Assembly: GCA_964605885.1 (NCBI GenBank)
Contig: CAZSED010000001.1
Span: forward strand, 70,428 to 134,427
Direction of reading: 5' to 3'
Origin: an uncultured Dehalococcoidales bacterium
Lineage (GTDB): Bacteria > Chloroflexota > Dehalococcoidia > GIF9 > UBA5629
DNA length: 64,000 nt
How positions within the stretch are numbered: position 1 is the stretch's first letter; every line of letters begins with the position of its first letter. Position numbers and translations under genes: made by a program. The notes beneath the pieces were generated by a model that saw only the letters and a list, made by a program, of their open reading frames with translations, was not told the DNA's origin and ran no database searches. Below, piece by piece: positions 38,443-51,278 of this stretch.

Positions 38443-39900
38443 GTGGTCCAGTTCGATAAATTCTTTTCCCCGGGCTCACTGGTGTTCCTGGGCGCCTCCG
38501 CTGACCCGGGCAAATGGGGTTACCGCATACTGTCCAACATACTCATGGGTGGATATCAGGGGAAAATATATCCGGTCAATCCCAAAGGCGGTGAAATCCT
38601 CGGACTCCCGGTATACGCAAGCGTGGCGTCAGTCCCCGGTACGCCCGACCTGGCGATAATCGTTGTGCCGCCGACCGGCATAGTGGAAGCCATCCAGGAC
38701 TGCGTGGACAGGGGCGTGAAGTCCGGGGTGGTGATAACCGCCGGGTTCGCCGAGACCGGCCGCCGGGGCGCAAACCTGCAGCAGAGGATGCTGGAGACAG
38801 CTAGGAAAGGCGGCATGCGGCTGATCGGCCCCAACTGTTTTGGCATTCTAAGCCCATCCCACCGGTTGTTTGCACAAATGCCGCCCATCTTCCCGCCGCC
38901 GGGCGAGATCGCCGTCGTATCGCAGAGCGGGAACGTTGGAGGCACCATAGCCCGCCGCGCCATGGCCCTGAATTTCGGCATCAGCCGCCTGGTTAGCACG
39001 GGCAATGAAGCAGACCTGCACGCTGAAGATTTTATTGAGTTTACGGGCTGGGATGAGCTTACCCGGGTGATCCTGGCTTACATTGAGGGCTTTAAAGACG
39101 GCCGCAGGTTCTTCCAGACGGCACAGAAGGTCAGCCTGGCCAAGCCCATAGTGCTGGTCAAGGTAGGCGAGACCGAGGCGGGCGCCAGCGCCGCCAGGTC
39201 GCATACGGCATCGTTGTCCGGCTCCAGCGCCGTCTTCGAGGGCATCTGCAGGCAGGCCGGCATTATCAAAGTACAGAACCTGCAGGAGCTGATGAACGTC
39301 GGCTACGGCTTCCTGTGTCATCCGCTGCCGCGCGGGCGGCGCGTGGGTATAGCCACGCTGGGAGGCGGGTGGGGAGTGCTGGCCGCCGATGCCTGCGCCA
39401 GGCTGGGGCTGGAAGTTGTGAAGCTGTCGGAAGAGGTGATACGGGAGCTGGATTCATTCCTGCCCGGCTGGTGGAGCAGGAATAATCCCGTGGACCTTGT
39501 TGCCGGGTCGCCTGACAACATCCTCCGTGCCATCGAAGTGCTGGCTAAATACGAACAGACCGACAGCGTGATTTCGCTGGGAGTGCCCTTTCCCCGCATA
39601 TCACGTGCATATCTGACGCTACCTGAAAGCGGGATTAAGAAGGCGCACCGCGGCATCGTGGAGCACTATGTCCATGCCTTTGGACAGATCAGGGAGATAT
39701 CCAGGAAATACAATAAGCCAGTCATTATCGCGGCGGATCTTTTCACACCTGCGGGCGACCGCGCCCTGGAGCAGGAGATCATGCGCTCCATTGCAGTTGA
39801 AAGAAGCGTGTGTTACAGCATGCCGCACGAGGCTGCCATGGTATTGAGCGCTATGGCCGGATACAGCGAGTTTGTCGCCGGCATAAAAGGGAACAGGTAG
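38443..39900 (+). CDS. CoA-binding protein / ADP-forming acetyl-CoA synthetase alpha-domain protein
   Basis: N-terminal CoA-binding Rossmann segment (FLGASADPGKWGYRI) and a succinyl-CoA-synthetase-like ligase domain. No ATP-grasp beta domain. Confidence 0.75.
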   Translation: MVQFDKFFSPGSLVFLGASADPGKWGYRILSNILMGGYQGKIYPVNPKGGEILGLPVYASVASVPGTPDLAIIVVPPTGIVEAIQDCVDRGVKSGVVITAGFAETGRRGANLQQRMLETARKGGMRLIGPNCFGILSPSHRLFAQMPPIFPPPGEIAVVSQSGNVGGTIARRAMALNFGISRLVSTGNEADLHAEDFIEFTGWDELTRVILAYIEGFKDGRRFFQTAQKVSLAKPIVLVKVGETEAGASAARSHTASLSGSSAVFEGICRQAGIIKVQNLQELMNVGYGFLCHPLPRGRRVGIATLGGGWGVLAADACARLGLEVVKLSEEVIRELDSFLPGWWSRNNPVDLVAGSPDNILRAIEVLAKYEQTDSVISLGVPFPRISRAYLTLPESGIKKAHRGIVEHYVHAFGQIREISRKYNKPVIIAADLFTPAGDRALEQEIMRSIAVERSVCYSMPHEAAMVLSAMAGYSEFVAGIKGNR

Positions 39901-40422
39901 CTACTTTAAAGACCTGTCTGTGAGCAGGTTCCACGTGCTGTCACATACGGCTGACACTATCTTACAGCCGGTCACCGTGATCTGCGCCGCGTGCTGCGTT
40001 ACTACTTCAGCCAGTACCTGGCCCTTCCTGTCGCCGTGGCCTGGATGCGCCGTCTTGAAGAAATAGAGAAGTTTCCAGGTCTTGCCGTTATCGGCTGACG
40101 TTTCGCTGTCCAGCTTGATGCTGTCCTTGATACCGTCGAAAGTAAAGGTCGGGCTATTCTTTATCAGGGTCAGGGCCAACCCGGCGGCCTGGGCGTCAGT
40201 ACAAACACCCTTCTTATAGACTTCAGTGGAGCAGGACCCTGCCTTGGACCCAAATAAGACAACAGCGAAAATGCCGCTGAGCACCAGGAAGCTTACGACA
40301 GTCAGTATTATACCGCTGAGTAAGCTCTTATTTTCAAATACATTTTTAAAGGGTACTTTCCTGGGTGGTTTTTTGGGTGTTTCCTCAGGCGTTTCCCTGG
40401 GCGCTTCTTTGGGTTCCTGCAT
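39901..40422 (-). CDS. membrane-anchored hypothetical protein
   Basis: Basic/Pro-rich N-terminus, one TM helix, and an extracytoplasmic domain with four Cys. Confidence 0.45.
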   Translation of the reverse strand: MQEPKEAPRETPEETPKKPPRKVPFKNVFENKSLLSGIILTVVSFLVLSGIFAVVLFGSKAGSCSTEVYKKGVCTDAQAAGLALTLIKNSPTFTFDGIKDSIKLDSETSADNGKTWKLLYFFKTAHPGHGDRKGQVLAEVVTQHAAQITVTGCKIVSAVCDSTWNLLTDRSLK

Positions 40423-40515
40423 GGATAATATTATAAGATCGCCGGTGAGCCGCTGGCAACGGGGTATAGCTTTTCACGAGCGGCCCATAATATACTATTA
40501 CTACAGGAGGTGCGT

Positions 40516-41073
40516 ATGCTGGAGACGTTGGTGCGCAACTGGTGGCTGATTGCACTGCGGGGCCTGGTGGCCCTCATCCTGGGTCTCGTCCTGTTGATAA
40601 TCCCCCCGGCAGCTTCAGCGATGTTCCTGGTGCTCTTTATTGGCGCCTATGCTCTGGTTGACGGCGTTTTCGCGCTGGTAGTGGGCATCATCAACAGGCC
40701 TGCCCACAGGGACAGGTGGTGGCTGATCATCGAGGGCACACTGGGCATACTTGCCGGCATCGTGATATTCACCTCGCCGCTGCTGGCCGGCGCAGTGCTT
40801 CTGTTCGTGATTGCCTTCTGGGCGCTGTTAACAGGCATATTCGAGATCGTCTTTGCCGCCATGCAGTGGAAATCCCTGCCGGACAAGTGGCTGCTGCTGC
40901 TGGGCGGCATCATCTCCGTGCTGCTGGGCATTTTCATCCTTTCCAATCTGGCCCTGGGTGCAGTGCTGGTGATAGTGATGATCGCCGTCTACCTGGTGCT
41001 GTTCGGCGTGGCGCTGATAGCCATGGGCTTCTCGCTCAAGGGCGCAGCCAAGGACCTGCCTAAAGCGGCATAG
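40516..41073 (+). CDS. HdeD family (DUF308) acid-resistance membrane protein
   Basis: Six TM helices with the HdeD pattern. RBS AGGAGGT 7 nt before the ATG. Confidence 0.75.
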   Translation: MLETLVRNWWLIALRGLVALILGLVLLIIPPAASAMFLVLFIGAYALVDGVFALVVGIINRPAHRDRWWLIIEGTLGILAGIVIFTSPLLAGAVLLFVIAFWALLTGIFEIVFAAMQWKSLPDKWLLLLGGIISVLLGIFILSNLALGAVLVIVMIAVYLVLFGVALIAMGFSLKGAAKDLPKAA

Positions 41074-41102
41074 CAGCAGATTACACCTGGGAAAAAGGTT
41101 GC

Positions 41103-41191
41103 TGGCGGAGGGGGCGGGATTCGAACCCGCGTTAGCAAAAAGCTAAAACGGTTTTCAAGACCGTCACCATCGTCCGCTCGGTCACCCCTCC
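41103..41191 (-). tRNA. tRNA-Ser (anticodon TGA), encoded CCA, long variable arm
   Basis: The minus-strand sequence GGAGGGGTGACCGAGCGG...CGGTCTTGAAAACCG...GGGTTCGAATCCCGCCCCCTCCGCCA folds as a class II tRNA. The anticodon loop CTTGAAA gives UGA. Confidence 0.85.
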
Positions 41192-41224
41192 ACGGACACA
41201 TAAGTATATTTAAACAGGGCTTGT

Positions 41225-41270
41225 GCTGGCAACTGGGTCATGCCTGGAAAGGCGCGGATCAATAGGAGAG
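41225..41270. repeat. left copy of a ~46-bp imperfect direct repeat (fossil 3' end of a ZnR-TlpA paralog)
   Basis: GCTGGCAACTGG...GCGCGGATCAATAGGAG matches 42255-42299. The minus strand reads ...SY-stop, as at the end of gene 42287-44551. Confidence 0.5.
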
Positions 41271-41377
41271 CATATCAGTTGCTAATATACAACCTATGTA
41301 TCGTCTGTTTCGTTTTCTGTAGTATTAATCTGCTTTTCTTATTAATAAGAGTACCATTTTCGAAGGAGACTTGAATT

Positions 41378-42121
41378 ATGGAAATTTTTGAGCTTATGAG
41401 CATCTCACACCGCTATATGGAGATACTGAATCCCTCCACGTCTGAAAAGATCATTAAACTTGGCAAGCTACTCAAATTGAACAAAGGAAGCCGGGTCATC
41501 GACTTCGGTTGTGGTTGTGCTGAGCCACTCACTCTCTGGGCTGAAGAATTCGGTATCACTGGTATTGGCATAGATATATCCGAAGATTTCTGTGACCGAG
41601 CTAGGAAAAAGCTGGCCATGAGAGGGTTGTCAGACAGAATCGAAATCGTTTGCTCCAACGGGGCTGATTACGTATTCGAAGAAGGGGCCTTCGATGCTGC
41701 AACGTGTATTGGGGCAACGTTTATTTTTGGCAGCTACCAGAAGACAGTCCAGGTACTGAAGCGGGCTGTTCATCAGAATGGACGCCTTGGTATCGGCGAA
41801 ACTCACTGGCTTAGCAATCAGGTGGATCCGGAATACTCCCAACGACAGGCAACTACCCACACAGAACCAGTACTAACTCAATTTACCCGGGACGAAGGCT
41901 TTGAGCTTGAATACATCATCCGTGCTAGCAGCGACGATTGGGACAGGTATATTTCAGATAGTTGGTACGGACTGATACGTTGGCTTAATGAAAATCCCAC
42001 TCACCCTGACCATGAACAGGTATTCAAATATTTTCGCACTGACCAGGATGATTATTTACAGTTCCAACGCCAATATATGGGTTGGGCTATGTACTGCCTA
42101 GCTCCCATCAAATCTCGTTAG
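41378..42121 (+). CDS. class I SAM-dependent methyltransferase (low-GC, likely horizontally acquired)
   Basis: VIDFGCGCAEP SAM-binding motif I. GC is visibly lower than the flanks, and AT-rich codons dominate. Confidence 0.8.
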   Translation: MEIFELMSISHRYMEILNPSTSEKIIKLGKLLKLNKGSRVIDFGCGCAEPLTLWAEEFGITGIGIDISEDFCDRARKKLAMRGLSDRIEIVCSNGADYVFEEGAFDAATCIGATFIFGSYQKTVQVLKRAVHQNGRLGIGETHWLSNQVDPEYSQRQATTHTEPVLTQFTRDEGFELEYIIRASSDDWDRYISDSWYGLIRWLNENPTHPDHEQVFKYFRTDQDDYLQFQRQYMGWAMYCLAPIKSR

Positions 42122-42254
42122 ATAGGTAGTCGCTCCTTTCGTCAATAGCTATTTACTTAAGTCTTGCCGCTCCCTTTGCCGCTCCCCGTGACACGGACAT
42201 CTACCTCACTCATTGACGAACGGCTTTAACTGGTACGATCGTGGAACAATGGTG

Positions 42255-42299
42255 GCTGGCAACTGGAGTTATGTGTGACGCGCGGGTCAATAGGAGTTG
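42255..42299. repeat. right copy of the ~46-bp direct repeat, overlapping the stop codon of gene 42287-44551
   Basis: GCTGGCAACTGG (12/12) followed by GCGCGGGTCAATAGGAG (17/18) relative to the left copy. Confidence 0.5.
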
Positions 42300-44551
42300 T
42301 ATAAGGCTTCAAGCTGGCTCAGGCTGGCGAACGAGCCGTCCTGTATCTTCCTGACGATGCCGGTGGAGTCCAGCATGAACGTCTTGGGCACCGAGGAGAT
42401 GTTGTAGTCCGTTCCCACCTGTCCGGTCTCATCCAGCGCCACGGTGAAGGTGTAGTTGCTGGTGGTGATAAGGTCTCCCACCTGGTATTTATTGACGGCG
42501 CCCAGCTGCGGGCCGCAGACGGCAATGATGGGCACGGTGGGATATTTTTCATGCATCTGCTGTATCAGCGGCATCTCGGACCGGCAGGGGCTGCAGTTAT
42601 AAGCCCAGAAATTGATTATCACCTTGCCGCCGCGCAGGTCCTTTAAAGCAATGTTGGTGGCGTCGGTACCGGGCAGCGTGAAGTCTGGCGCCTGCTGCCC
42701 TACTCCAGTCCCCGATGCAGGAGGCGTCTGGAACGTGGCATCGGGCGAAGCGGCCTCATTGCCGGCGGCATCCCTCGATTTCACCTTGTAATGGATGGTG
42801 CCCTGCAGGGGCAGACCGTTCAGCGTTATGCTGTGGTCTTTTATCATCGTTGTGTCCGTGCTGGACGGCTGCACCGTTCCATAGGTCTCGGTGTTGCCGT
42901 AAGCCACCTGGCTGGTAGCCGGCTCATCGGTCAGCCACTCTATCGTGGCCGAAGCATCAACGGAAGAGCTGATTATATTTGCTGCCTTGACTAAAGAGAT
43001 GACCGGAGGCGTTGTATCCCTCACGCCGGTGGTGATCAGCACGCTGGTGGCATCCAGCTGAGCGTCCGGCGCATCATCCGCGTCGCTGAGGCGCGATTTA
43101 ACGGTAATGTGATAGGACTTGTTGGGCTGCAGGTTGGTTAGACTTACCGTGTGGTCCGTGACCAGCGCGTCGTTTTTCGCATTCTCGCATTGCGTACCGC
43201 CCTCCAGGCAGTAGATGACGATGCTGCTTGATTTCTTATCCGTTTGCCAGGTGACCACCCCGCTCGTCTGTGTGATATCGCTGAACTGGATGTTGCTTAT
43301 TTCCGGCGGCCTGGCCACTATGGTCCCGGCGCTGGTTGCAGAAGGGTTTAGCTTGGCCGGCGGCGGCGTTTTAAGCTGGTCCATTACCATCACGACCGAG
43401 ACGATTATGATCCCGGCCAGTGCCAGGAGGGCCAGGAGTATTGGCAGGGGATGCTTCTTTTCCTTTGGTTCCCCTTCGCCCTCCAGCGCCTCCTCATAGG
43501 CGGCTTTCCCTTTCCTTTTCGGCTTGGGCCTTCTCTTTTCGTGCCGGGGCCTTTCTTTGATGCGAGGCGCAGGCGCCGGCATGGCTATGTCATATGGTTG
43601 CACGGCCGGCTGGCCGTAGTACTGGTCAGCTTGCTGCAGGACGGGTTGCCCGTAGTACTGGTCTGCCAGCGGCGCGGCGTTGGGCTGGCCGGCTGAAAGC
43701 GGAGACTCGGATGGCATTGTTGCCACGTGGGACTTGTAATAGTCCTCGGCCTTGAGCATGGGCCTGCCCTTCTCCATTGGCAGGCGATTCCAGCCGCAAG
43801 AAGGACAGATCTTGCTGCGGTCGGGGACCGGTGAATGGCAGTTGGGACACAGGCGCTGCTCCCCGGCGTAATCCTGGGAGGCGCCCGCCTGCATCATGGC
43901 ATCCTGCGGTGCTGACGGAATGGGATTCATTTGCGGATAAATATCCTGGGGTGGGGTGTGCCTGGGCTGCGTCCTCGTCTGCTCCGCCTCGGCGCTGGCG
44001 GCGCGCTTGGCCTCGATGCGCCTCCATAGGTCTCCGGTGTGCCTGCCCGGCATCAGGTTTTTTTCGTCCCTCATCACAGCTCCGCCGCCGAACTTACCGT
44101 GTACCGGGCAAAGGCTCGAGCCTGGCGGAATGGGCGTGCCGCACTTGGCACAGACCTTTTGTTTGGAGGGCGCCTCCGACTCACCGCGGTATAATCCGCT
44201 GGAGTGACCCCCATCGGCCGGCTGCATAACACCAAAGCCCTGGGCCGGGGACTGCGTGACCAGCTGTCCCAAGCGCCCGCAGTACGGGCATTTCCTGGCC
44301 CCCGGGCTGATCTTTGAACCGCAGTTGGAGCAGTAGAACTGGCTGCTGGATGAACCTGTTGAAGCGGGCGCCGCCGCGTATTTACCCGGCCTGAATGAGA
44401 GGTCCTTTTTCCCGCAATGCGGACAGACGCTGGCATCTGGTGATTCGATAATGAGGTGACAACTCGGGCAAAAGCGGGCGCCGCATTTCTGGCAGGTTAC
44501 AGCGTTTGGTTCATTGACCTCATGGCACCGTTGACAGACTATGCTGGGCAT
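42287..44551 (-). CDS. paralog 1: four N-terminal zinc ribbons, Pro/Gln-rich linker, TM helix, FN3-like domains and C-terminal TlpA-like thioredoxin (thiol-disulfide oxidoreductase)
   Basis: Four C-x2-C...C-x2-C modules. TM helix LPILLALLALAGIIIVSVVMV. FN3-like motifs VTWQTD and IEWLTD. Redoxin motif INFWAYNCSPC. Confidence 0.7.
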   Translation of the reverse strand: MPSIVCQRCHEVNEPNAVTCQKCGARFCPSCHLIIESPDASVCPHCGKKDLSFRPGKYAAAPASTGSSSSQFYCSNCGSKISPGARKCPYCGRLGQLVTQSPAQGFGVMQPADGGHSSGLYRGESEAPSKQKVCAKCGTPIPPGSSLCPVHGKFGGGAVMRDEKNLMPGRHTGDLWRRIEAKRAASAEAEQTRTQPRHTPPQDIYPQMNPIPSAPQDAMMQAGASQDYAGEQRLCPNCHSPVPDRSKICPSCGWNRLPMEKGRPMLKAEDYYKSHVATMPSESPLSAGQPNAAPLADQYYGQPVLQQADQYYGQPAVQPYDIAMPAPAPRIKERPRHEKRRPKPKRKGKAAYEEALEGEGEPKEKKHPLPILLALLALAGIIIVSVVMVMDQLKTPPPAKLNPSATSAGTIVARPPEISNIQFSDITQTSGVVTWQTDKKSSSIVIYCLEGGTQCENAKNDALVTDHTVSLTNLQPNKSYHITVKSRLSDADDAPDAQLDATSVLITTGVRDTTPPVISLVKAANIISSSVDASATIEWLTDEPATSQVAYGNTETYGTVQPSSTDTTMIKDHSITLNGLPLQGTIHYKVKSRDAAGNEAASPDATFQTPPASGTGVGQQAPDFTLPGTDATNIALKDLRGGKVIINFWAYNCSPCRSEMPLIQQMHEKYPTVPIIAVCGPQLGAVNKYQVGDLITTSNYTFTVALDETGQVGTDYNISSVPKTFMLDSTGIVRKIQDGSFASLSQLEALYNSY

Positions 44552-44629: not shown

Positions 44630-46009
44630 TCAGTACGATTCGAGCATGAATTCCACTTCAGCCGGGCTGGTGAACATGCCCTGCTGGATCCTGCGGATTA
44701 CACCGCCTTTGTCTATAAAATAGGTCTTGGGTATGCTGACTATTTCATAACGGTTGAAGACGGCGTCGCTGGGGTCCAGGCATACCTCAAAATCAAACTT
44801 GTTCTCCATTTGGACATAGTCTCTTATAGCCGCTTCGTCGGACTGGCTGCCGGCAATGGTCAGCACCATAACGTTGGGGCTGTCGCGGTATTTATCCCAG
44901 AGTGCCTGCAGGTGCGGGAGCTCGATTTTACATGGGGTGCACCAGCTGGCCCAGAAGTTAAGTACCACCTTTTTGCCCATATACTGGCTAAGAGTAACCT
45001 GTGTGCCGTCGAGGTCCTTGAGCGTGAAATCGGGCGCCCTGCTGCCCATGTAAGGGGCAGCATTTGATACGGGCTCTGTCCTGAAGGTGTTGTCGCTGGA
45101 GGTAAGTGTGTTTCCCGAGGAATCCTTGGAGATAGTCTGGTAATGGTACAGGGAATCCGGCGCAAGGCCCTGTAACAAAATGCTGTGGTCGGTCTTCAGC
45201 TCGATTATCTCTATGGAGGGGAACGGGTAGGTAGTATCGTTTCCGTACCTGAGAAAAGAGGTTGACTTGATGTTGGTTTTCCAGCCGACCGTGGCTGAAA
45301 AACTGCTGGCCGACGCCGCGGGGCCATCGGTGAAGCGCAGTTTATCCGAATCCGGCTGAGGATTTGAGGGCGGCGGCTTGGTGTTGGCTACCGAAGCATT
45401 ATCAGCGGCTACCAGCGGTTTGTTCTTATTTACCTCGGGAGGCGTTGCAGGGGGCTTGATATCGTCGGGCTTTTTGGCTGTCGATTGGTTATCCGTGACC
45501 GTTACCGAAGGAGGGTTCTTAACAGTTTTATTGTCAGACGGGCTGCTGCGGGCCAGGGCGGCCAGCTTGCCGGGAAGGTTGGCTGACTCTATAGCACGCG
45601 CCATTGAGCCGGCATTGGCTGCTATGATTACCAGGCAGGCCACACCGGCCAGCACCACGGCAATATTGCGGACCGCCGTCTTATTAACGGGACGCCTGAC
45701 TGGCTTTCTGGCATAGAGGCTCCTTATATCGCGGTCATCGTCTGTTATTTCTCTCTCTTCTGATTTGCGGGCGCGCCGCGGCCTGATCTCGATATCGACT
45801 TCTTCGCTGATGAACACATCCTCTTTTTTAGCAGGCCTGTGTTTTTCCGGCTCAGGACGCCTTTCAGGTGTAAATTTAAGCTTGAACTGCCTTTTCCTGT
45901 CCGGCAATGAGACAGGTATATGCGGCCCTGTGGACTCACAATTAGGGCAGTACTGGTTTATGTAGTTCCGGGGTTTGCCACAACCCTCGCATTTAAATGG
46001 GTATGCCAA
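44630..46009 (-). CDS. paralog 2: zinc ribbon, TM helix, FN3-like domain and TlpA-like thioredoxin
   Basis: TTG start. CEGCGK...CPNCES ribbon. TM helix IAVVLAGVACLVIIA. FN3-like motif VGWKTN. Redoxin motif LNFWASWCTPC. Confidence 0.7.
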   Translation of the reverse strand: MAYPFKCEGCGKPRNYINQYCPNCESTGPHIPVSLPDRKRQFKLKFTPERRPEPEKHRPAKKEDVFISEEVDIEIRPRRARKSEEREITDDDRDIRSLYARKPVRRPVNKTAVRNIAVVLAGVACLVIIAANAGSMARAIESANLPGKLAALARSSPSDNKTVKNPPSVTVTDNQSTAKKPDDIKPPATPPEVNKNKPLVAADNASVANTKPPPSNPQPDSDKLRFTDGPAASASSFSATVGWKTNIKSTSFLRYGNDTTYPFPSIEIIELKTDHSILLQGLAPDSLYHYQTISKDSSGNTLTSSDNTFRTEPVSNAAPYMGSRAPDFTLKDLDGTQVTLSQYMGKKVVLNFWASWCTPCKIELPHLQALWDKYRDSPNVMVLTIAGSQSDEAAIRDYVQMENKFDFEVCLDPSDAVFNRYEIVSIPKTYFIDKGGVIRRIQQGMFTSPAEVEFMLESY

Positions 46010-46053: not shown

Positions 46054-46638
46054 TCACTGTGAGGGCTTGAAAACCTCGGGCACAGTGGGAGATGCCAGCC
46101 ATTTGGTGATTGTATCGTAGTTGTTAATTACGTACATTGCCAGCAGGATGAGAAGTATAACCAGGATAACGCTAACTATTATAGTGGTGAGGCTGCCGCC
46201 TTTGCTCCTTTCGGGCTGCTCTTCCTCCTCTTCCTCTTCATCGGATTCGTCCTCGTATTCAGCCTCAAAGTCCTCATCCTCATCTCTGCGTTTGCCCTTT
46301 TTATATTCTTTTTCTTCAAGCCGGTCCATATCTTCAATATGGTCCAGCATGGGGCTGCGCCGGCGGATGCCCGCCGGGAATTTGTCCTCGTCATCCTCCC
46401 GGCTGCCCCGCATCCTGGATGGCGCTTCGTCAGCAATATCTACCGGCCCGGCGTCGACAAAACCGCCGGCGGAAGGTGTGAAGCTCTCCCTTCGTCCTGC
46501 AGCCGGACCTGCGCTTGCCCCTGCAGCGGATTCAGTCCTATTCACAAAGTCATGCGGCCCCAGACTGCCGCAGGCATCGCACTTCTGATTGATGGAAGGC
46601 ATGGGATTTCCGCATTTACATCTGAACTGAGTTTCCAA
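46054..46638 (-). CDS. paralog 3 (truncated): zinc ribbon, poly-acidic tract and TM helix only
   Basis: Start chosen at a TTG with RBS AAGGAG 8 nt upstream (METQFRCKCG...). CKCGN...CDACGS ribbon. Acidic run DEDEDFEAEYEDESDEEEEEEEQ. C-terminal TM helix. No FN3 or TlpA domains. Confidence 0.5.
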   Translation of the reverse strand: METQFRCKCGNPMPSINQKCDACGSLGPHDFVNRTESAAGASAGPAAGRRESFTPSAGGFVDAGPVDIADEAPSRMRGSREDDEDKFPAGIRRRSPMLDHIEDMDRLEEKEYKKGKRRDEDEDFEAEYEDESDEEEEEEEQPERSKGGSLTTIIVSVILVILLILLAMYVINNYDTITKWLASPTVPEVFKPSQ

Positions 46639-46784
46639 TGTATTTTCTCCTTGAAAAAGAAATTTGCGGATGTGCGGAGGCAGTTGAACGGCTGCTGATT
46701 TGATCCATATACGAGGCAATTAGTATCATTCAATATCTACACTACAACGGGATAAAACTGATGTCAAGGTATTTTTGGGCAGTA

Positions 46785-48353
46785 TTATAAATCGTTGAGA
46801 ATCTGCTGCACCTGATCGATGTTAAAGTTGCCGAATTCAACAGCGCGAATAATGTTCTCGCCGTCGATGAAGAACGTGCAGGGGACCTTCTCAACGTTGT
46901 AGAGATGAGCCGTGGTCTTGTAGGCGTCCAAACATATGGCGAATGTAGGGTCGCCAAGGCGGGACTTGTAGGCCGAAATGGCCTTGTTTATCTCCTCCGG
47001 CTTGCTTTCCAGGAATACGCCGATTACAGCCACCCCCTGCGGGTTTCTGTTCCTAACCGTTTGCAGCAGCTCAAGCTCACGGTCACACTCGGGACAATAA
47101 ACGGCCCAAAAGCTCAGCAGGATTTTTTGACCCTTATAGGTGCGCAGGGAAATGCTTTCCTGTGAATTGACCAGCGGAAGGGTGAAATCCGGTGCGCGGT
47201 CGCCTATTTTCGAGCCCAGCGGCACGGAAACATAGGTTACAAAGCTGTCCGGCGGCTCCATAATCGCCTGATTGCCGTCTGCATCAACGGATTTTATTCG
47301 ATAGTAGTAAGTCTGGCCGGGCTGCAGGCCACTGACGCGGATTGAATGCTGGGTGATCAGCCTGGAGTCGACTGATGTTGAGCCCGAGGTCGACTGGTCC
47401 AGCCCGTAGAGTACCTGCGCGGTGGCAGGCTTGTCGGTCGCCCAGGTAACGACGGCGCTTATATCGGACGGCAACACTGTGAATTGTGAGACCACGGGCG
47501 GCTGGGTGTTGCTCCTAGCCAGCGTGCTGAATGTTTGGTCCATGCTGCGCGATAGCTCTTTGCCGTCTTTATCCATAGCCAGCACTGCGAAGTGGTAGGC
47601 GGTCGCAGGCTCAAGCCCGCTGAGAAGCACACGGTGCGATGCCGTCCGGTTGTCTGCCTGAGAGGCCAGGCCGTACAGGTCGGCCTTGCCGTACAGGACC
47701 TTGCCATAGGCCGCCAGGTCAGTAGTCCAGGCAATGCTGGCCCCGGTGGCTGTTACCTCGGACACTGCTATGTTTGCTACGGCCGGCATGGCGGTCGGGG
47801 TTGCAGACTGAGAGGGGGCCTTTGGCACGGTGAAAAGCGACCTGAAAAGGCCTGATTGATAGGCCAGCAGGCCGCATAAACCTACGATTATGACGACGAT
47901 GGCAGCGATAATAATGACGTCAAGCTTTTTAAGCCGTTTGACTCCGATGGCGGAACTGCGCCTGCCGATCTTGGCGCCGGCCTGACCCCTGGCCGGTTCC
48001 CCGCGCTTCTCCCCTTCGGGTCCGCTGCCGCCGGGCTGGTCCTGGGCCTGCGGGTAAATCTTGGGTTTCTGCGTGCTTTTACCGCAGTGGGGGCACTTGG
48101 GCAGCGCTGATGGCAGCACGGCCATGCAGTTAGGGCAGCGGTACTGTCTCTGTTCCTGCCCGGAAACAGAATCTCCCATGCCGGAAGCCGACCTCTTCTC
48201 TATAATCCTTTGCCAGAGGCTAACGCCCTGCTCCTCCACCCGGTCCATATACCAGCGTTTGCCGCAGGCAGGGCAGATTGCCGTGCCTTCCGGCACAACC
48301 TTGCCGCACTGCCGGCAGAACTTCGGGCCCGATTGTGATTCAGCTTCAGCCAT
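46785..48353 (-). CDS. paralog 4: two zinc ribbons, TM helix, two FN3-like domains and TlpA-like thioredoxin
   Basis: CRQCGK...CPACGK and CPNC...CPHCGK ribbons. TM helix VIIIAAIVVIIVGLCGLLA. Redoxin motif LSFWAVYCPEC. Confidence 0.7.
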   Translation of the reverse strand: MAEAESQSGPKFCRQCGKVVPEGTAICPACGKRWYMDRVEEQGVSLWQRIIEKRSASGMGDSVSGQEQRQYRCPNCMAVLPSALPKCPHCGKSTQKPKIYPQAQDQPGGSGPEGEKRGEPARGQAGAKIGRRSSAIGVKRLKKLDVIIIAAIVVIIVGLCGLLAYQSGLFRSLFTVPKAPSQSATPTAMPAVANIAVSEVTATGASIAWTTDLAAYGKVLYGKADLYGLASQADNRTASHRVLLSGLEPATAYHFAVLAMDKDGKELSRSMDQTFSTLARSNTQPPVVSQFTVLPSDISAVVTWATDKPATAQVLYGLDQSTSGSTSVDSRLITQHSIRVSGLQPGQTYYYRIKSVDADGNQAIMEPPDSFVTYVSVPLGSKIGDRAPDFTLPLVNSQESISLRTYKGQKILLSFWAVYCPECDRELELLQTVRNRNPQGVAVIGVFLESKPEEINKAISAYKSRLGDPTFAICLDAYKTTAHLYNVEKVPCTFFIDGENIIRAVEFGNFNIDQVQQILNDL

Positions 48354-48499: not shown

Positions 48500-49762
48500 C
48501 TATTTAATGGCCTCCAAATTCATGTAGGGCCTTAAGGCTTCAGGCACCATTATGCTGCCATCCGCTTGCTGATAGTTTTCCATGACGGCTATCATCACCC
48601 TGGGCAGTGCCAGCCCCGAGCCGTTGAGCGTGTGTACCAGGACTGGCTTTGCTTCGACGTCCGGGCGATATCGCACATTGGCCCTGCGGGCCTGGAAATC
48701 GCCGCAGTTGCTGCAGGAGCTGACCTCGAGCCACTCCCCGCAGCCCGGCGCCCACATTTCGATATCGAAAGTCTTTGCAGCCGCGAATCCCAGGTCGCCG
48801 GTGCAAAGTTGGATTACGCGGTAGGCCAGCCCCAGCTTCCGGCAGACTTCCTCTGCGTTGGTAACCAGTTTGCTGAGCTCGTTATCAGACGTATCCGGCT
48901 GGACGAATTTGTACATCTCCACCTTCTCGAACTGATGGCCGCGTTTTATGCCGCGCGTGTCCTTGCCGGCAGCCATTTTTTCGCGGCGAAAGCAGGATGT
49001 ATGCGAGACGTAATTGAGCGGCAGCATGCCGGGGGCTAATATCTCGTCGCGGTGCAGGTTGGTCAGCGGCACTTCTGCTGTGGGGATAAACCAGTAGTCC
49101 TCTTCGGCATCGTGATAGAGGTTGTCGGCGAACTTGGGAAGATTGCTTGATCCCACCAGGCATTCCCTTTTGACCATGAAGGGTGGGAATATCTCGGTAT
49201 AGCCGTGCTGGTTAACGTGCAGGTCGAGCATGAAGCTGATCAAGGCGCGCTGCAGCAGTGCACCGGCGCCCGACAGCACATAAAAGCGCGTGCCGGACAG
49301 CTTCACGCCGCGCTGGAAATCGATAATTCCCAGCTTCTCAGCCAGCTCCCAGTGAGGGAGGGCCTTGAAATCAAGCTTTTTGGGCTCGCCCCATGCACGA
49401 ACAATTACATTTTCTTCTGCGCCTTTACCTTCGGGCACGTCCGGCGCAGGGATGTTAGGCAGCCGCAGCAGCCTGTCCTCCAGCTTATCAGCCAGCTCCT
49501 TGGCCTCTGCTTCAATGCGGGATATGTTATCTCCGACCTGCCGCATTTCCGCTATGAGATTGGCAGGCTTCTCTTTCATCTGGCTGATCTTCTTGCTCAC
49601 ATCATTGCGCCGCGCCCTAAGAGACTCAGCCTCTTTCAGCAGCTGCCTGTAAGCGTTGTCCAGGGTTATCACCTCATCCAGTTGTGTAGCGTCCTCGCCG
49701 CGCTTCTTCATGGCAAGGAAGACGGCGTCCGGATTTTCGCGTATCAGCCTGATATCTATCAT
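48500..49762 (-). CDS. serS: seryl-tRNA synthetase
   Basis: N-terminal coiled coil plus class II aaRS motifs. 420 aa. Confidence 0.95.
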   Translation of the reverse strand: MIDIRLIRENPDAVFLAMKKRGEDATQLDEVITLDNAYRQLLKEAESLRARRNDVSKKISQMKEKPANLIAEMRQVGDNISRIEAEAKELADKLEDRLLRLPNIPAPDVPEGKGAEENVIVRAWGEPKKLDFKALPHWELAEKLGIIDFQRGVKLSGTRFYVLSGAGALLQRALISFMLDLHVNQHGYTEIFPPFMVKRECLVGSSNLPKFADNLYHDAEEDYWFIPTAEVPLTNLHRDEILAPGMLPLNYVSHTSCFRREKMAAGKDTRGIKRGHQFEKVEMYKFVQPDTSDNELSKLVTNAEEVCRKLGLAYRVIQLCTGDLGFAAAKTFDIEMWAPGCGEWLEVSSCSNCGDFQARRANVRYRPDVEAKPVLVHTLNGSGLALPRVMIAVMENYQQADGSIMVPEALRPYMNLEAIK

Positions 49763-49772
49763 AAATTGTGTC

Positions 49773-51278
49773 CTACCTGGATTTGAGCTGGGGGAAAAGT
49801 ATCACTTCACGTATGGACTGCTTATCTGTGAATATCATTATCAGGCGGTCTATGCCGATACCGAGCCCGCCGGTAGGAGGCATGCCGTACTCCATGGCCG
49901 TCAGGAAATCATCGTCTATCAGTTCAATCTCGGGCATTTCGCCCGCCGCCCTGGCGCGTTCCACTTCCGCCGAGTGCATCTCTCTCTGTATTGTAAACCT
50001 TTCGCGCTGCTCCCGTGGGTCGTTCAGCTCCGAGAATGAATTGGCCACTTCCAGGCTGCCGATGAAGGCCTCGAAACGTTCCACGAGCTGGGGATTATCA
50101 CGGTGCTTTTTGGCCAGCGGCGACATTTCAACCGGGTAGTCTATAAGGAAAGTGGGCTGTTTGAGCTGCGGCTCGACGTAGGTGGACAGCAGTTCGTCTA
50201 TCAGCCTTCCCCTGTCCTTCAGGGGGTCAACCTGCATGCCCAGTTTCTCCATCCTGGCACGCAGGCTGTCGGCGTCCGGGTAGTCCATGAAGTCTATGCT
50301 GCAATGGTCGATAAGCGCCTGCCTGAGCGGAATGCGTTTCCAGGGCGGATCGAGCTTGATGGTTTCGCCGGCATAGGTAACCTGCGTGCTGCCGAGCACA
50401 TCCCGGGCAGCCTGGCTGATCAACGTCTCAGTCATCTGCATGACGTCATTATAATCAGCGTAGGCCTCATAGCTTTCCAGCATGGTAAACTCGGGGTTGT
50501 GCTTGGTTGAGATCCCTTCATTGCGAAAGACCCGGCCGATCTCGTAGACCTTATCGAAGCCGCCGATTATCAGCCTCTTTAAATACAGCTCCAGCGCTAT
50601 GCGCGGATACAGGTCCTGATCAAGTGCGTGGTGATGGGTGATAAAGGGACGCGCCAGCGCCCCGCCGTACATCGGCTGGAGCACAGGCGTCTCCACCTCT
50701 ATAAATCCATGAATGTTCATGAAGTTACGTATCGAGATGATTATTTTGCTTCTTGTAACAAACAGCTCTTTAATATCCCTGTTCGCGATAAGGTCCAGGT
50801 ACCTCTGGCGGTACCTTTTTTCCACGTCCACCAGCCCGTGCCACTTTTCCGGCAGGGGCATCAGCGACTTCGCCAGGAGCTCGAACTGTCCCACGTCCAG
50901 CGTGATTTCCCCGCTGCGGGTCTTGAAAAGCGTGCCCTTCACACCCAGAAAATCACCGATATCCACGTCGTGCAGCAACTGGTAACTTTCGTCGCCCAGG
51001 GAGTCACGCTTAAAAAAGAGCTGTATCTTGGCGGAGCCGTCCGTTATATCGAAAAAAGCTGTTTTGCCCATGAATCTTGCAGCTGTAACGCGCCCTGCCA
51101 GGCTGATGTCCGGGAGGGTTGATGCGGGGTCATCACCGGCGGATGAACGGAAAAGCTCCAGGGCTTCGAGGTTGGTATGCGTGCGGGCGTATCTGTACGG
51201 ATAGGGATTAATGCCGCGCTTAATAATCCTGGTCAGTTTTTCCAGACGCGGCTGTTCTACACGCTCCTGCCCGCCCAT
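49773..51278 (-). CDS. lysS: lysyl-tRNA synthetase, class II
   Basis: OB anticodon-binding domain followed by a class II core (GGLGIGIDRLIM). Confidence 0.95.
   Translation of the reverse strand: MGGQERVEQPRLEKLTRIIKRGINPYPYRYARTHTNLEALELFRSSAGDDPASTLPDISLAGRVTAARFMGKTAFFDITDGSAKIQLFFKRDSLGDESYQLLHDVDIGDFLGVKGTLFKTRSGEITLDVGQFELLAKSLMPLPEKWHGLVDVEKRYRQRYLDLIANRDIKELFVTRSKIIISIRNFMNIHGFIEVETPVLQPMYGGALARPFITHHHALDQDLYPRIALELYLKRLIIGGFDKVYEIGRVFRNEGISTKHNPEFTMLESYEAYADYNDVMQMTETLISQAARDVLGSTQVTYAGETIKLDPPWKRIPLRQALIDHCSIDFMDYPDADSLRARMEKLGMQVDPLKDRGRLIDELLSTYVEPQLKQPTFLIDYPVEMSPLAKKHRDNPQLVERFEAFIGSLEVANSFSELNDPREQRERFTIQREMHSAEVERARAAGEMPEIELIDDDFLTAMEYGMPPTGGLGIGIDRLIMIFTDKQSIREVILFPQLKSR

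Follow-up and report, generated by a model that had tools for sequence, protein, structure and literature searches.

What has to be explained at positions 41103 to 42299 of the window (the whole stretch of DNA that was analysed, 64,000 nucleotides from an uncultured Dehalococcoidales bacterium) is how a methyltransferase gene (MT) came to lie between a serine tRNA gene and the end of a redoxin gene, with two copies of one short sequence on its flanks. The tRNA gene is tRNA-Ser(TGA), and the redoxin gene is par1, the first of three tandem paralogs (par1, par2 and par3). Comparison loci and contigs are referred to by L-numbers. Our analysis indicates that this arrangement probably goes back to a single horizontal acquisition, in which a foreign MT segment of about 986 bp was inserted in the par1-tRNA-Ser junction and about 45 bp of the target was duplicated.

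The flanking repeats and the empty junction

A gapped local alignment of 41225-41268 with 42255-42296 gave 36 identities in 45 positions and a score of 43. The null for this score consisted of 2000 shuffles and 2000 other pieces of the window (mean approximately 16.7, standard deviation 2.1), and its maximum in the 4000 trials was 27, so that the repeat is far above chance. Two blocks within the alignment are nearly or fully conserved: GCTGGCAACTGG is identical at 12/12 positions (41225-41236 vs 42255-42266) and GCGCGGRTCAATAGGAG at 16/17 (41252-41268 vs 42280-42296), and each block has only two copies in the whole 64 kb. An earlier note on this DNA, made from the sequence alone, had described direct repeats at 41225-41270 and 42255-42299 flanking the MT segment. 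The alignment confirms the repeats, their starts and the 12/12 block, but the second block, given there as 17/18, measures 16/17, and the similarity halts at 41268 and 42296, 2-3 nt short of the ends given there.

The right copy holds the last codons and stop codon of par1 (...YNSY-stop), and translation of the left copy on the minus strand gives ...MLSY-stop in a reading frame that is open for only 17 codons. Both observations agree with the earlier description of a right copy that overlaps the stop of paralog 1 and a geneless left copy ending ...LSY-stop. The SY-stop ending was present in all of the checked par1 orthologs except that of L017, and is also found in par2 of the window. When the 3' ends of par2 and par3 were aligned with the repeat, no similarity was detected; with only the two copies in the window, the idea that the repeat represents the conserved 3' end of the paralog family had to be given up. 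The repeats, composed of the par1 3' end, spacer and a -35 box, are situated 34-77 nt upstream of the tRNA-Ser 5' end, and the tRNA gene faces the cassette with its 5' (promoter) side rather than its 3' end. With the insertion on that side, tRNA-Ser is not the attachment site or recombination target, and the repeat is not derived from the tRNA.

Species-representative genomes were scanned with the nearby CoA-binding protein, and 15 Dehalococcoidia/Chloroflexota loci were obtained (L015-L029; 61-69% amino acid identity). The same tRNA-Ser(TGA) was found in the same orientation downstream of the CoA-binding gene in 9 of the 15, and tblastn revealed no MT homolog in any of the 15. The tblastn map of L024 (CoA-binding, hyp173, DUF308, tRNA-Ser, par1, par2, hyp221, par3) is fully syntenic with the window except that the MT is absent. 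In L026 and L029, par1 immediately adjoins tRNA-Ser, and L033 and L034, which contain the closest par1 orthologs by protein search (57-59% identity), both run directly into tRNA-Ser; the identity of the adjoining par1 orthologs in relatives ranges from 49 to 59%. These five genomes lack the segment between tRNA-Ser and par1. From the par1 stop to the tRNA 5' end they have 67 nt (L024), 69 nt (L026, L029) or 71 nt (L033, L034). This is the empty site, without the MT, for which the earlier note had proposed a comparison with related genomes.

The stop codon in the left copy of the window (41259-41261) is located exactly 67 nt from the tRNA 5' end (41191). Since this is where the par1 orthologs of the empty sites end, the left copy is the displaced 3' end of par1 itself. 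The 12-mer of the left repeat contains the -35 hexamer of the tRNA-Ser promoter, and both ATAGTATATTTAA and GGCAAnnTG upstream of tRNA-Ser are conserved in most of nine aligned related loci. The right copy bears a duplicate -35 box, as far from the stop as in the left copy but without a -10 box, and this equal spacing is what a duplication of the par1-tRNA junction would give. The left copy represents the original junction, with the displaced last codons and stop of par1, the 3' untranslated region (UTR) and the -35 box of the tRNA promoter.

The inserted segment and its methyltransferase

Composition was compared among 53 non-overlapping open reading frames (ORFs) of at least 150 amino acids (aa) in the window. 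The MT has the lowest GC content of the 53 (0.466; z = -3.1) and also the lowest GC at third codon positions (0.484 vs a mean of 0.690; z = -3.25). The segment 41269-42250 has a GC content of 0.452, compared to 0.552 for the whole window, which bears out the AT-richer segment that had been noticed earlier and for which a GC profile had been suggested.

The closest DNA relatives of the insert, L036 and L037 (89% identity), carry it in a different context. Their homology sets in precisely at 41268, where the left repeat has its inner edge, and extends beyond the ORF to the ends of the short contigs. Upstream of the MT, 41269-41377 is homologous over 110 nt, and downstream, 42122-42254 is partly homologous to L036 as far as the end of that contig. 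In L009, L035, L038 and L039, merely 22-43 nt upstream of the MT start are shared with the window. The cassette end in L036/L037 has no flank that resembles the 45-bp sequence, and at the left junction of the window there is a microhomology of 1-3 nt (G/GAG). The composition, the conservation of the MT across phyla and domains described below, the DNA relative in a different context and the boundary at the repeat edge all identify the insert as foreign, and 41269-42254 is a discrete foreign unit.

The MT is the single ORF of the cassette, and no mobility machinery was detected with it. No terminal inverted repeats joining the insert ends and no second copy of its non-coding parts were found in the window. 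Folding of 42122-42254 as single-stranded DNA on both strands, in search of an attC-like structure, was no better than that of shuffles (z-scores 0.17 and 0.00), and no R''/R' core pair was seen there by eye. There was no integrase or transposase among the Pfam-scanned or source-annotated ORFs spanning approximately 32.4-57 kb of the window; the flanking ones encode housekeeping proteins (seryl- and lysyl/aspartyl-type tRNA synthetases, GreA, pyruvate carboxylase subunits) or proteins of unknown function. Close MT relatives on plasmids were also not found, the plasmid matches all being below 60% identity (approximately 31-33% for those listed), and the MT had no phage or viral contig matches.

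The MT translation contains the glycine-rich motif DFGCGCAE and matches the Pfam families Methyltransf_25 (E = 8e-13, 49.4 bits, cut-off 27) and Methyltransf_11 (E = 5e-12, 46.7 bits, cut-off 21.2). Full-length matches with E-values of about 1e-38 were obtained to the PDB structures 1nkv (E. coli YjhP, E = 3e-38), 5bp7 and 5epe, while no NCBIfam model reached its cut-off, the best being the DVU_1556 family with 44 bits vs 155. The product is predicted to be a YjhP-like class I S-adenosylmethionine (SAM)-dependent methyltransferase. It resembles the YjhP family (1nkv, 5bp7, 5epe) over its full length and in its Rossmann-type methyltransferase Pfam domains, but is only approximately 32% identical to the enterobacterial YjhP copies. 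YjhP is still treated as uncharacterised (PMC12096079).

Hundreds of protein relatives of the MT have 73-89% identity, and its 90% cluster comprises 1115 members annotated as Chloroflexota, Dehalococcoidia and Methanosaeta/Methanothrix, that is, as both Bacteria and Archaea. Identity is 86% to Dehalococcoidia, including Dehalogenimonas etheniformans, 85-86% to Methanothrix, 83% to Ca. Saccharicenans and 78% to Bathyarchaeia. By comparison, the CoA-binding protein of the host has at most 69% identity to the nearest Dehalococcoidia species, and par1 at most 59%. The MT is far more conserved across phyla and domains than the host genes, so that the search for its origin by homology, another suggestion of the earlier note, also supports a foreign source (83-86% to Dehalogenimonas, Methanothrix and Saccharicenans vs at most 69% for the host protein). 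The distribution of the cluster suggests a recent exchange of the gene between domains or, possibly, errors in some of the binning. The identity of 78-89% across Chloroflexota, Methanothrix, Bathyarchaeia and Saccharicenans implies recent exchange between domains in anoxic habitats, and also some selectable function that is worth identifying.

In seven other loci examined, the MT homolog is solitary among unrelated neighbours. An exact 14-nt direct repeat, AGCGGCAGATACTT, brackets the homolog in D. etheniformans (L005, CP058566; 4467-4480 and 6022-6035). It was considered as an insertion mark and rejected, as its two copies fall within the coding sequences of the neighbours (Fpg-like and NrfD) and the repeat is probably due to chance.

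Origin of the duplication

In the acquisition that we favour, the ancestral site would have been a 67-nt junction between the par1 stop codon and tRNA-Ser(TGA), and the incoming DNA of approximately 986 bp would have brought a YjhP-like MT with its own 5' region. About 45 bp, from the last three codons of par1 through the 3' UTR to the -35 box of tRNA-Ser, would have been duplicated in the process; a long staggered break that was then filled in, or the integration of a circular fragment by a single (Campbell-type) crossover, could each account for this. The left copy would thereby preserve the complete tRNA promoter and the right copy the par1 C-terminus and stop. Such a target duplication regenerates both the par1 stop codon and the adjacent tRNA promoter, and because neither neighbour is damaged the insertion could be fixed. 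The earlier proposal of a foreign gene inserted at the par1 3' end and UTR beside the tRNA is upheld by the empty sites, the composition and the MT conservation. Its further proposal of recombination at a 3' end and UTR next to the tRNA stands for the par1 junction, but not for a 3' element common to the whole family.

The divergence between the two copies was examined with the help of a same-species contig, L004 (ENA ERZ27247965 k141_557892). L004 is identical to the window from 38808 to 42269 (3.5 kb, 100%), which includes the whole cassette, and then shows 20 differences within the 59 nt of 42270-42328, covering the centre of the right repeat, the par1 stop and the last ~14 codons. It is identical again up to 42802 (474 nt) and unrelated from 42803, inside the FN3 region of par1, a pattern that points to mosaic recombination within par1, or else to a contig with a chimeric end. 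When the left copy is used as a third sequence, the right copy of the window is derived in the centre (C-to-T changes and a 3-nt deletion), while that of L004 is derived in the stop-proximal part. Because each right allele departs from the left copy in a different segment, a majority-rule reconstruction of the ancestral right copy comes out almost the same as the left copy. The duplication was therefore probably near-exact over its ~45 bp when it was made, judging from these three alleles, and the present 80% identity would reflect later change, including at least one short recombination tract of the type seen in L004.

Several observations weigh against the favoured acquisition. The copies are now 80% identical with differences clustered in the centre, which could mean that they came from two different source lineages. 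This uneven divergence was considered as proof of two sources, an argument that is weakened by L004 as the third sequence. The length of approximately 45 bp far exceeds the duplications that transposases usually make, and points to no particular enzyme. No significant flanking repeats were found at other MT insertions, so that the duplication does not belong to the cassette as such. The right boundary of the cassette has no independent definition, as the L036/L037 contigs end too early. In addition, no close relative with an empty site was found, the closest par1 orthologs being just 57-59% identical, so that the polarity rests on more distant genomes. The empty-site pattern CTCGGTCACCCCTCC-N55-80-TCAATARGARKTGTATAAG had 0 matches in metagenome contigs, a scan of these contigs with the par1 C-terminal protein found only one distant locus, and no par1 ortholog above 59% identity was found outside the same species. 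Among the same-species contigs recovered, none lacks the cassette; all of the places recovered via the DUF308 neighbour carry the MT.

An unlikely, though the strongest, alternative is homology-facilitated illegitimate recombination (HFIR), or 3'-end displacement, with a related Dehalococcoidia donor in which par1 was already followed by the cassette. A homologous crossover within par1 would have been combined with an illegitimate joint 10 nt inside the recipient par1 3' end, so that the right copy would be the donor allele and the left copy the displaced original of the recipient, with no duplication step. The C-terminal displacement models of Rhs and type VI secretion system (T6SS) loci (PMC5361080) have the same geometry, with a displaced 3' fossil left downstream of the DNA that came in. 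The identity of only 80% with central differences, the microhomology at the left junction, and L004, which shows that tracts replacing the par1 3' end and UTR occur in the population, are also consistent with this route. The polarity of the 59-nt tract of L004, as a possible donor-derived anchor in par1, is ambiguous. However, the donor must already have had the cassette abutting the -35 box, which merely moves the problem of origin back, and the illegitimate joint must coincide with the left end of the cassette that is set independently by L036/L037. The three-allele comparison, which suggests an ancestral right copy near-identical to the left, also argues against this route, and no such donor was found in the metagenome contig and par1 ortholog searches.

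Less probable again is a CIME-like islet, that is, a remnant or non-autonomous site-specific integrative element for which the 45-bp repeats would be attL and attR and the tyrosine or serine recombinase would come from another place in the genome or from a portion of the element lost since then. Integrative elements typically have att sites in the form of 40-60-bp direct repeats by which the target gene regains its 3' end, and those observed here would fit. The foreign composition of the segment and the variability of the region around tRNA-Ser among relatives (beyond the tRNA in L033 and L034, and the 7.7-kb cluster of L022) also favour such an islet. Against it, no integrase was found in the cassette or in the scanned and annotated ORFs, the cassette end in L036/L037 and the other MT loci are without comparable repeats, the junction insertions of L016, L017, L022 and L023 likewise have none, and the repeat is not tRNA-derived.

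Highly improbable is the suggestion of the earlier note that a fifth paralog, a tandem par1 duplicate with its UTR beside the tRNA, was replaced by the MT with only its last codons left. The tandem array (par1, par2, par3) and the SY-stop ending that the fossil shares with family members are in its favour, but the relatives with the array all have a par1 ortholog beside tRNA-Ser and the same three members plus hyp221. The fossil stop, 67 nt from the tRNA, occupies the ancestral place of par1, the insert shows no trace of par coding or upstream sequence, par2 and par3 lack the repeat, and two events with very precise end points would be required. Finally, the reading without any insertion, with an ancestral MT that the relatives have lost and a repeat that is a functional motif or arose by chance, fits the presence of the MT in every sampled same-species contig but is effectively refuted by the empty sites, whose 67-71-nt spacers would have to be restored by precise deletions on at least three independent occasions, by the most deviant composition in the window together with a cross-domain spread at 78-89% identity, and by a repeat score far beyond chance.

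The near-exact ~45-bp duplication around a recombinase-less 1-kb cassette, one end of which is sharply defined, could also mark an uncharacterised trans-acting integration mechanism, a speculation to which we give little credence. If true, it would involve long staggered cuts or a host-encoded integrase, and might help explain how the MT cassette spread among Dehalococcoidia, Methanothrix and other anaerobes at 78-89% identity.

Surrounding features and comparison with known systems

The features of the locus are collected in Table 1. The non-coding distances are 186 nt from tRNA-Ser to the MT ORF and 165 nt from the MT ORF to the par1 3' end. An Rfam scan found only the tRNA above threshold, with no riboswitch or other RNA.

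Table 1. Coordinates of the features at the par1-tRNA-Ser junction of the window.
Feature	Position	Strand	Basis or remark
tRNA-Ser(TGA)	41103-41191	minus	ARAGORN; Rfam RF00005, 55.9 bits; conserved and syntenic in relatives
Promoter-like site of tRNA-Ser	41203-41232	minus	TTGCCA (-35), 18-nt spacer, TATACT (-10); promoter scan, 10/12 match
Left direct-repeat copy	41225-41268	none	original par1 3' end, 3' UTR/spacer and tRNA -35 box, severed from par1
Fossil of par1 last codons (..SY-stop), geneless	41259-41268	minus	translation ...MLSY-stop; stop 41259-41261
Inserted foreign segment, ~986 bp	41269-42254	plus	absent from junction in relatives; GC; L036/L037 homology
AT-rich 5' region of cassette; presumed own promoter, 5' UTR and ribosome-binding site	41269-41377	plus	homology to MT-upstream DNA elsewhere
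MT ORF, predicted YjhP-like class I SAM-dependent methyltransferase, 247 aa	41378-42121	plus	Pfam and PDB matches
3' non-coding part of insert	42122-42254	plus	TTGCCGCTCCC tandem pair; 12-nt inverted repeat; no significant folding
Right direct-repeat copy	42255-42296	none	working par1 stop and last codons, UTR, duplicate -35 box without -10
par1, 754 aa	42287-44551	minus	Pfam: zinc-ribbon, transmembrane (TM), FN3-like, AhpC/TSA redoxin; 3' end is the insertion target
par2	44630-46009		follows par1
par3	46785-48353		follows par2

The paralog array also encodes a small acidic protein (46054-46719), and the order of the three zinc-ribbon/TM/FN3/AhpC-TSA paralogs and this protein is kept across Dehalococcoidia at approximately 50% identity (L017, L024, L026, L034). 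Beyond the array, a seryl-tRNA synthetase and a class II (Lys/Asp/Asn-type) tRNA synthetase occupy 48500-51278, about 7 kb from tRNA-Ser, and are followed by GreA, which places the array in a core housekeeping region.

Both sides of tRNA-Ser differ among relatives. At the tRNA-Ser/par1 junction, a small conserved minus-strand ORF is present in L016 (3372-3775), L017 (4053-4486) and L023 (3578-3979), and L022 (12381-20050) has that gene as well as a 7.7-kb cluster with an acyl-CoA dehydrogenase, three CoA-transferases, a major facilitator superfamily (MFS) transporter and an AsnC regulator; no flanking repeats were found at the fillings in these four loci. The genes past the tRNA-Ser 3' side differ among L033 (3584-7583; a cation ATPase and an IS1595 transposase), L034 (6206-10205; an AAA_15 ATPase and a type I restriction HsdR) and the window, and this side resembles a variable integration hotspot of the classical type.

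The locus is a tidy, bounded example of a single foreign gene entering a core housekeeping region of a streamlined Dehalococcoidia genome with its neighbours unharmed. Mildly unusual are the length of the duplication, given that no recombinase is encoded in cis, and the extent to which the cargo gene is conserved between domains.

The cassette shares with the tRNA-associated islands of tyrosine recombinases the low-GC foreign DNA beside a tRNA gene, the direct repeats of approximately 45 bp, and the arrangement in which one repeat restores the 3' end of the target while the other is the displaced copy. In contrast to these islands, the repeat here consists of a protein-gene 3' end and promoter-side spacer rather than a tRNA 3' end, no integrase was found, the unit is 1 kb with one gene, and the same cassette occurs elsewhere without an att-like flank.

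Orphan 3' ends and C-terminal displacement at Rhs, contact-dependent inhibition (CDI) and T6SS effector loci have been attributed to HFIR (PMC5361080). The similarity to these loci lies in the 3' fossil of a resident gene downstream of incoming DNA and in the 3'-end recombination tracts seen in L004. The present locus differs in that there is no new C-terminal domain or immunity gene, the fossil is just 10 coding nt, the repeat reaches into the intergenic spacer and the tRNA promoter, and the incoming gene is on the opposite strand and functionally unrelated to par1.

Transposable elements and casposons also produce direct duplications of the host target with precise junctions. However, their duplications are 2-15 bp in length compared to approximately 45 bp here, and no terminal inverted repeats, transposase or casposase were found. 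Like an integron cassette, the segment is a single-ORF unit of about 1 kb that occurs in many unrelated contexts; unlike one, it has no attC-like hairpin, has its own 5' region, is not part of an array, and has no integron integrase among the ORFs examined nearby. In comparison with all of these systems, the segment is an ordinary horizontally acquired gene islet with an unusually long target duplication, and not a new class of element.

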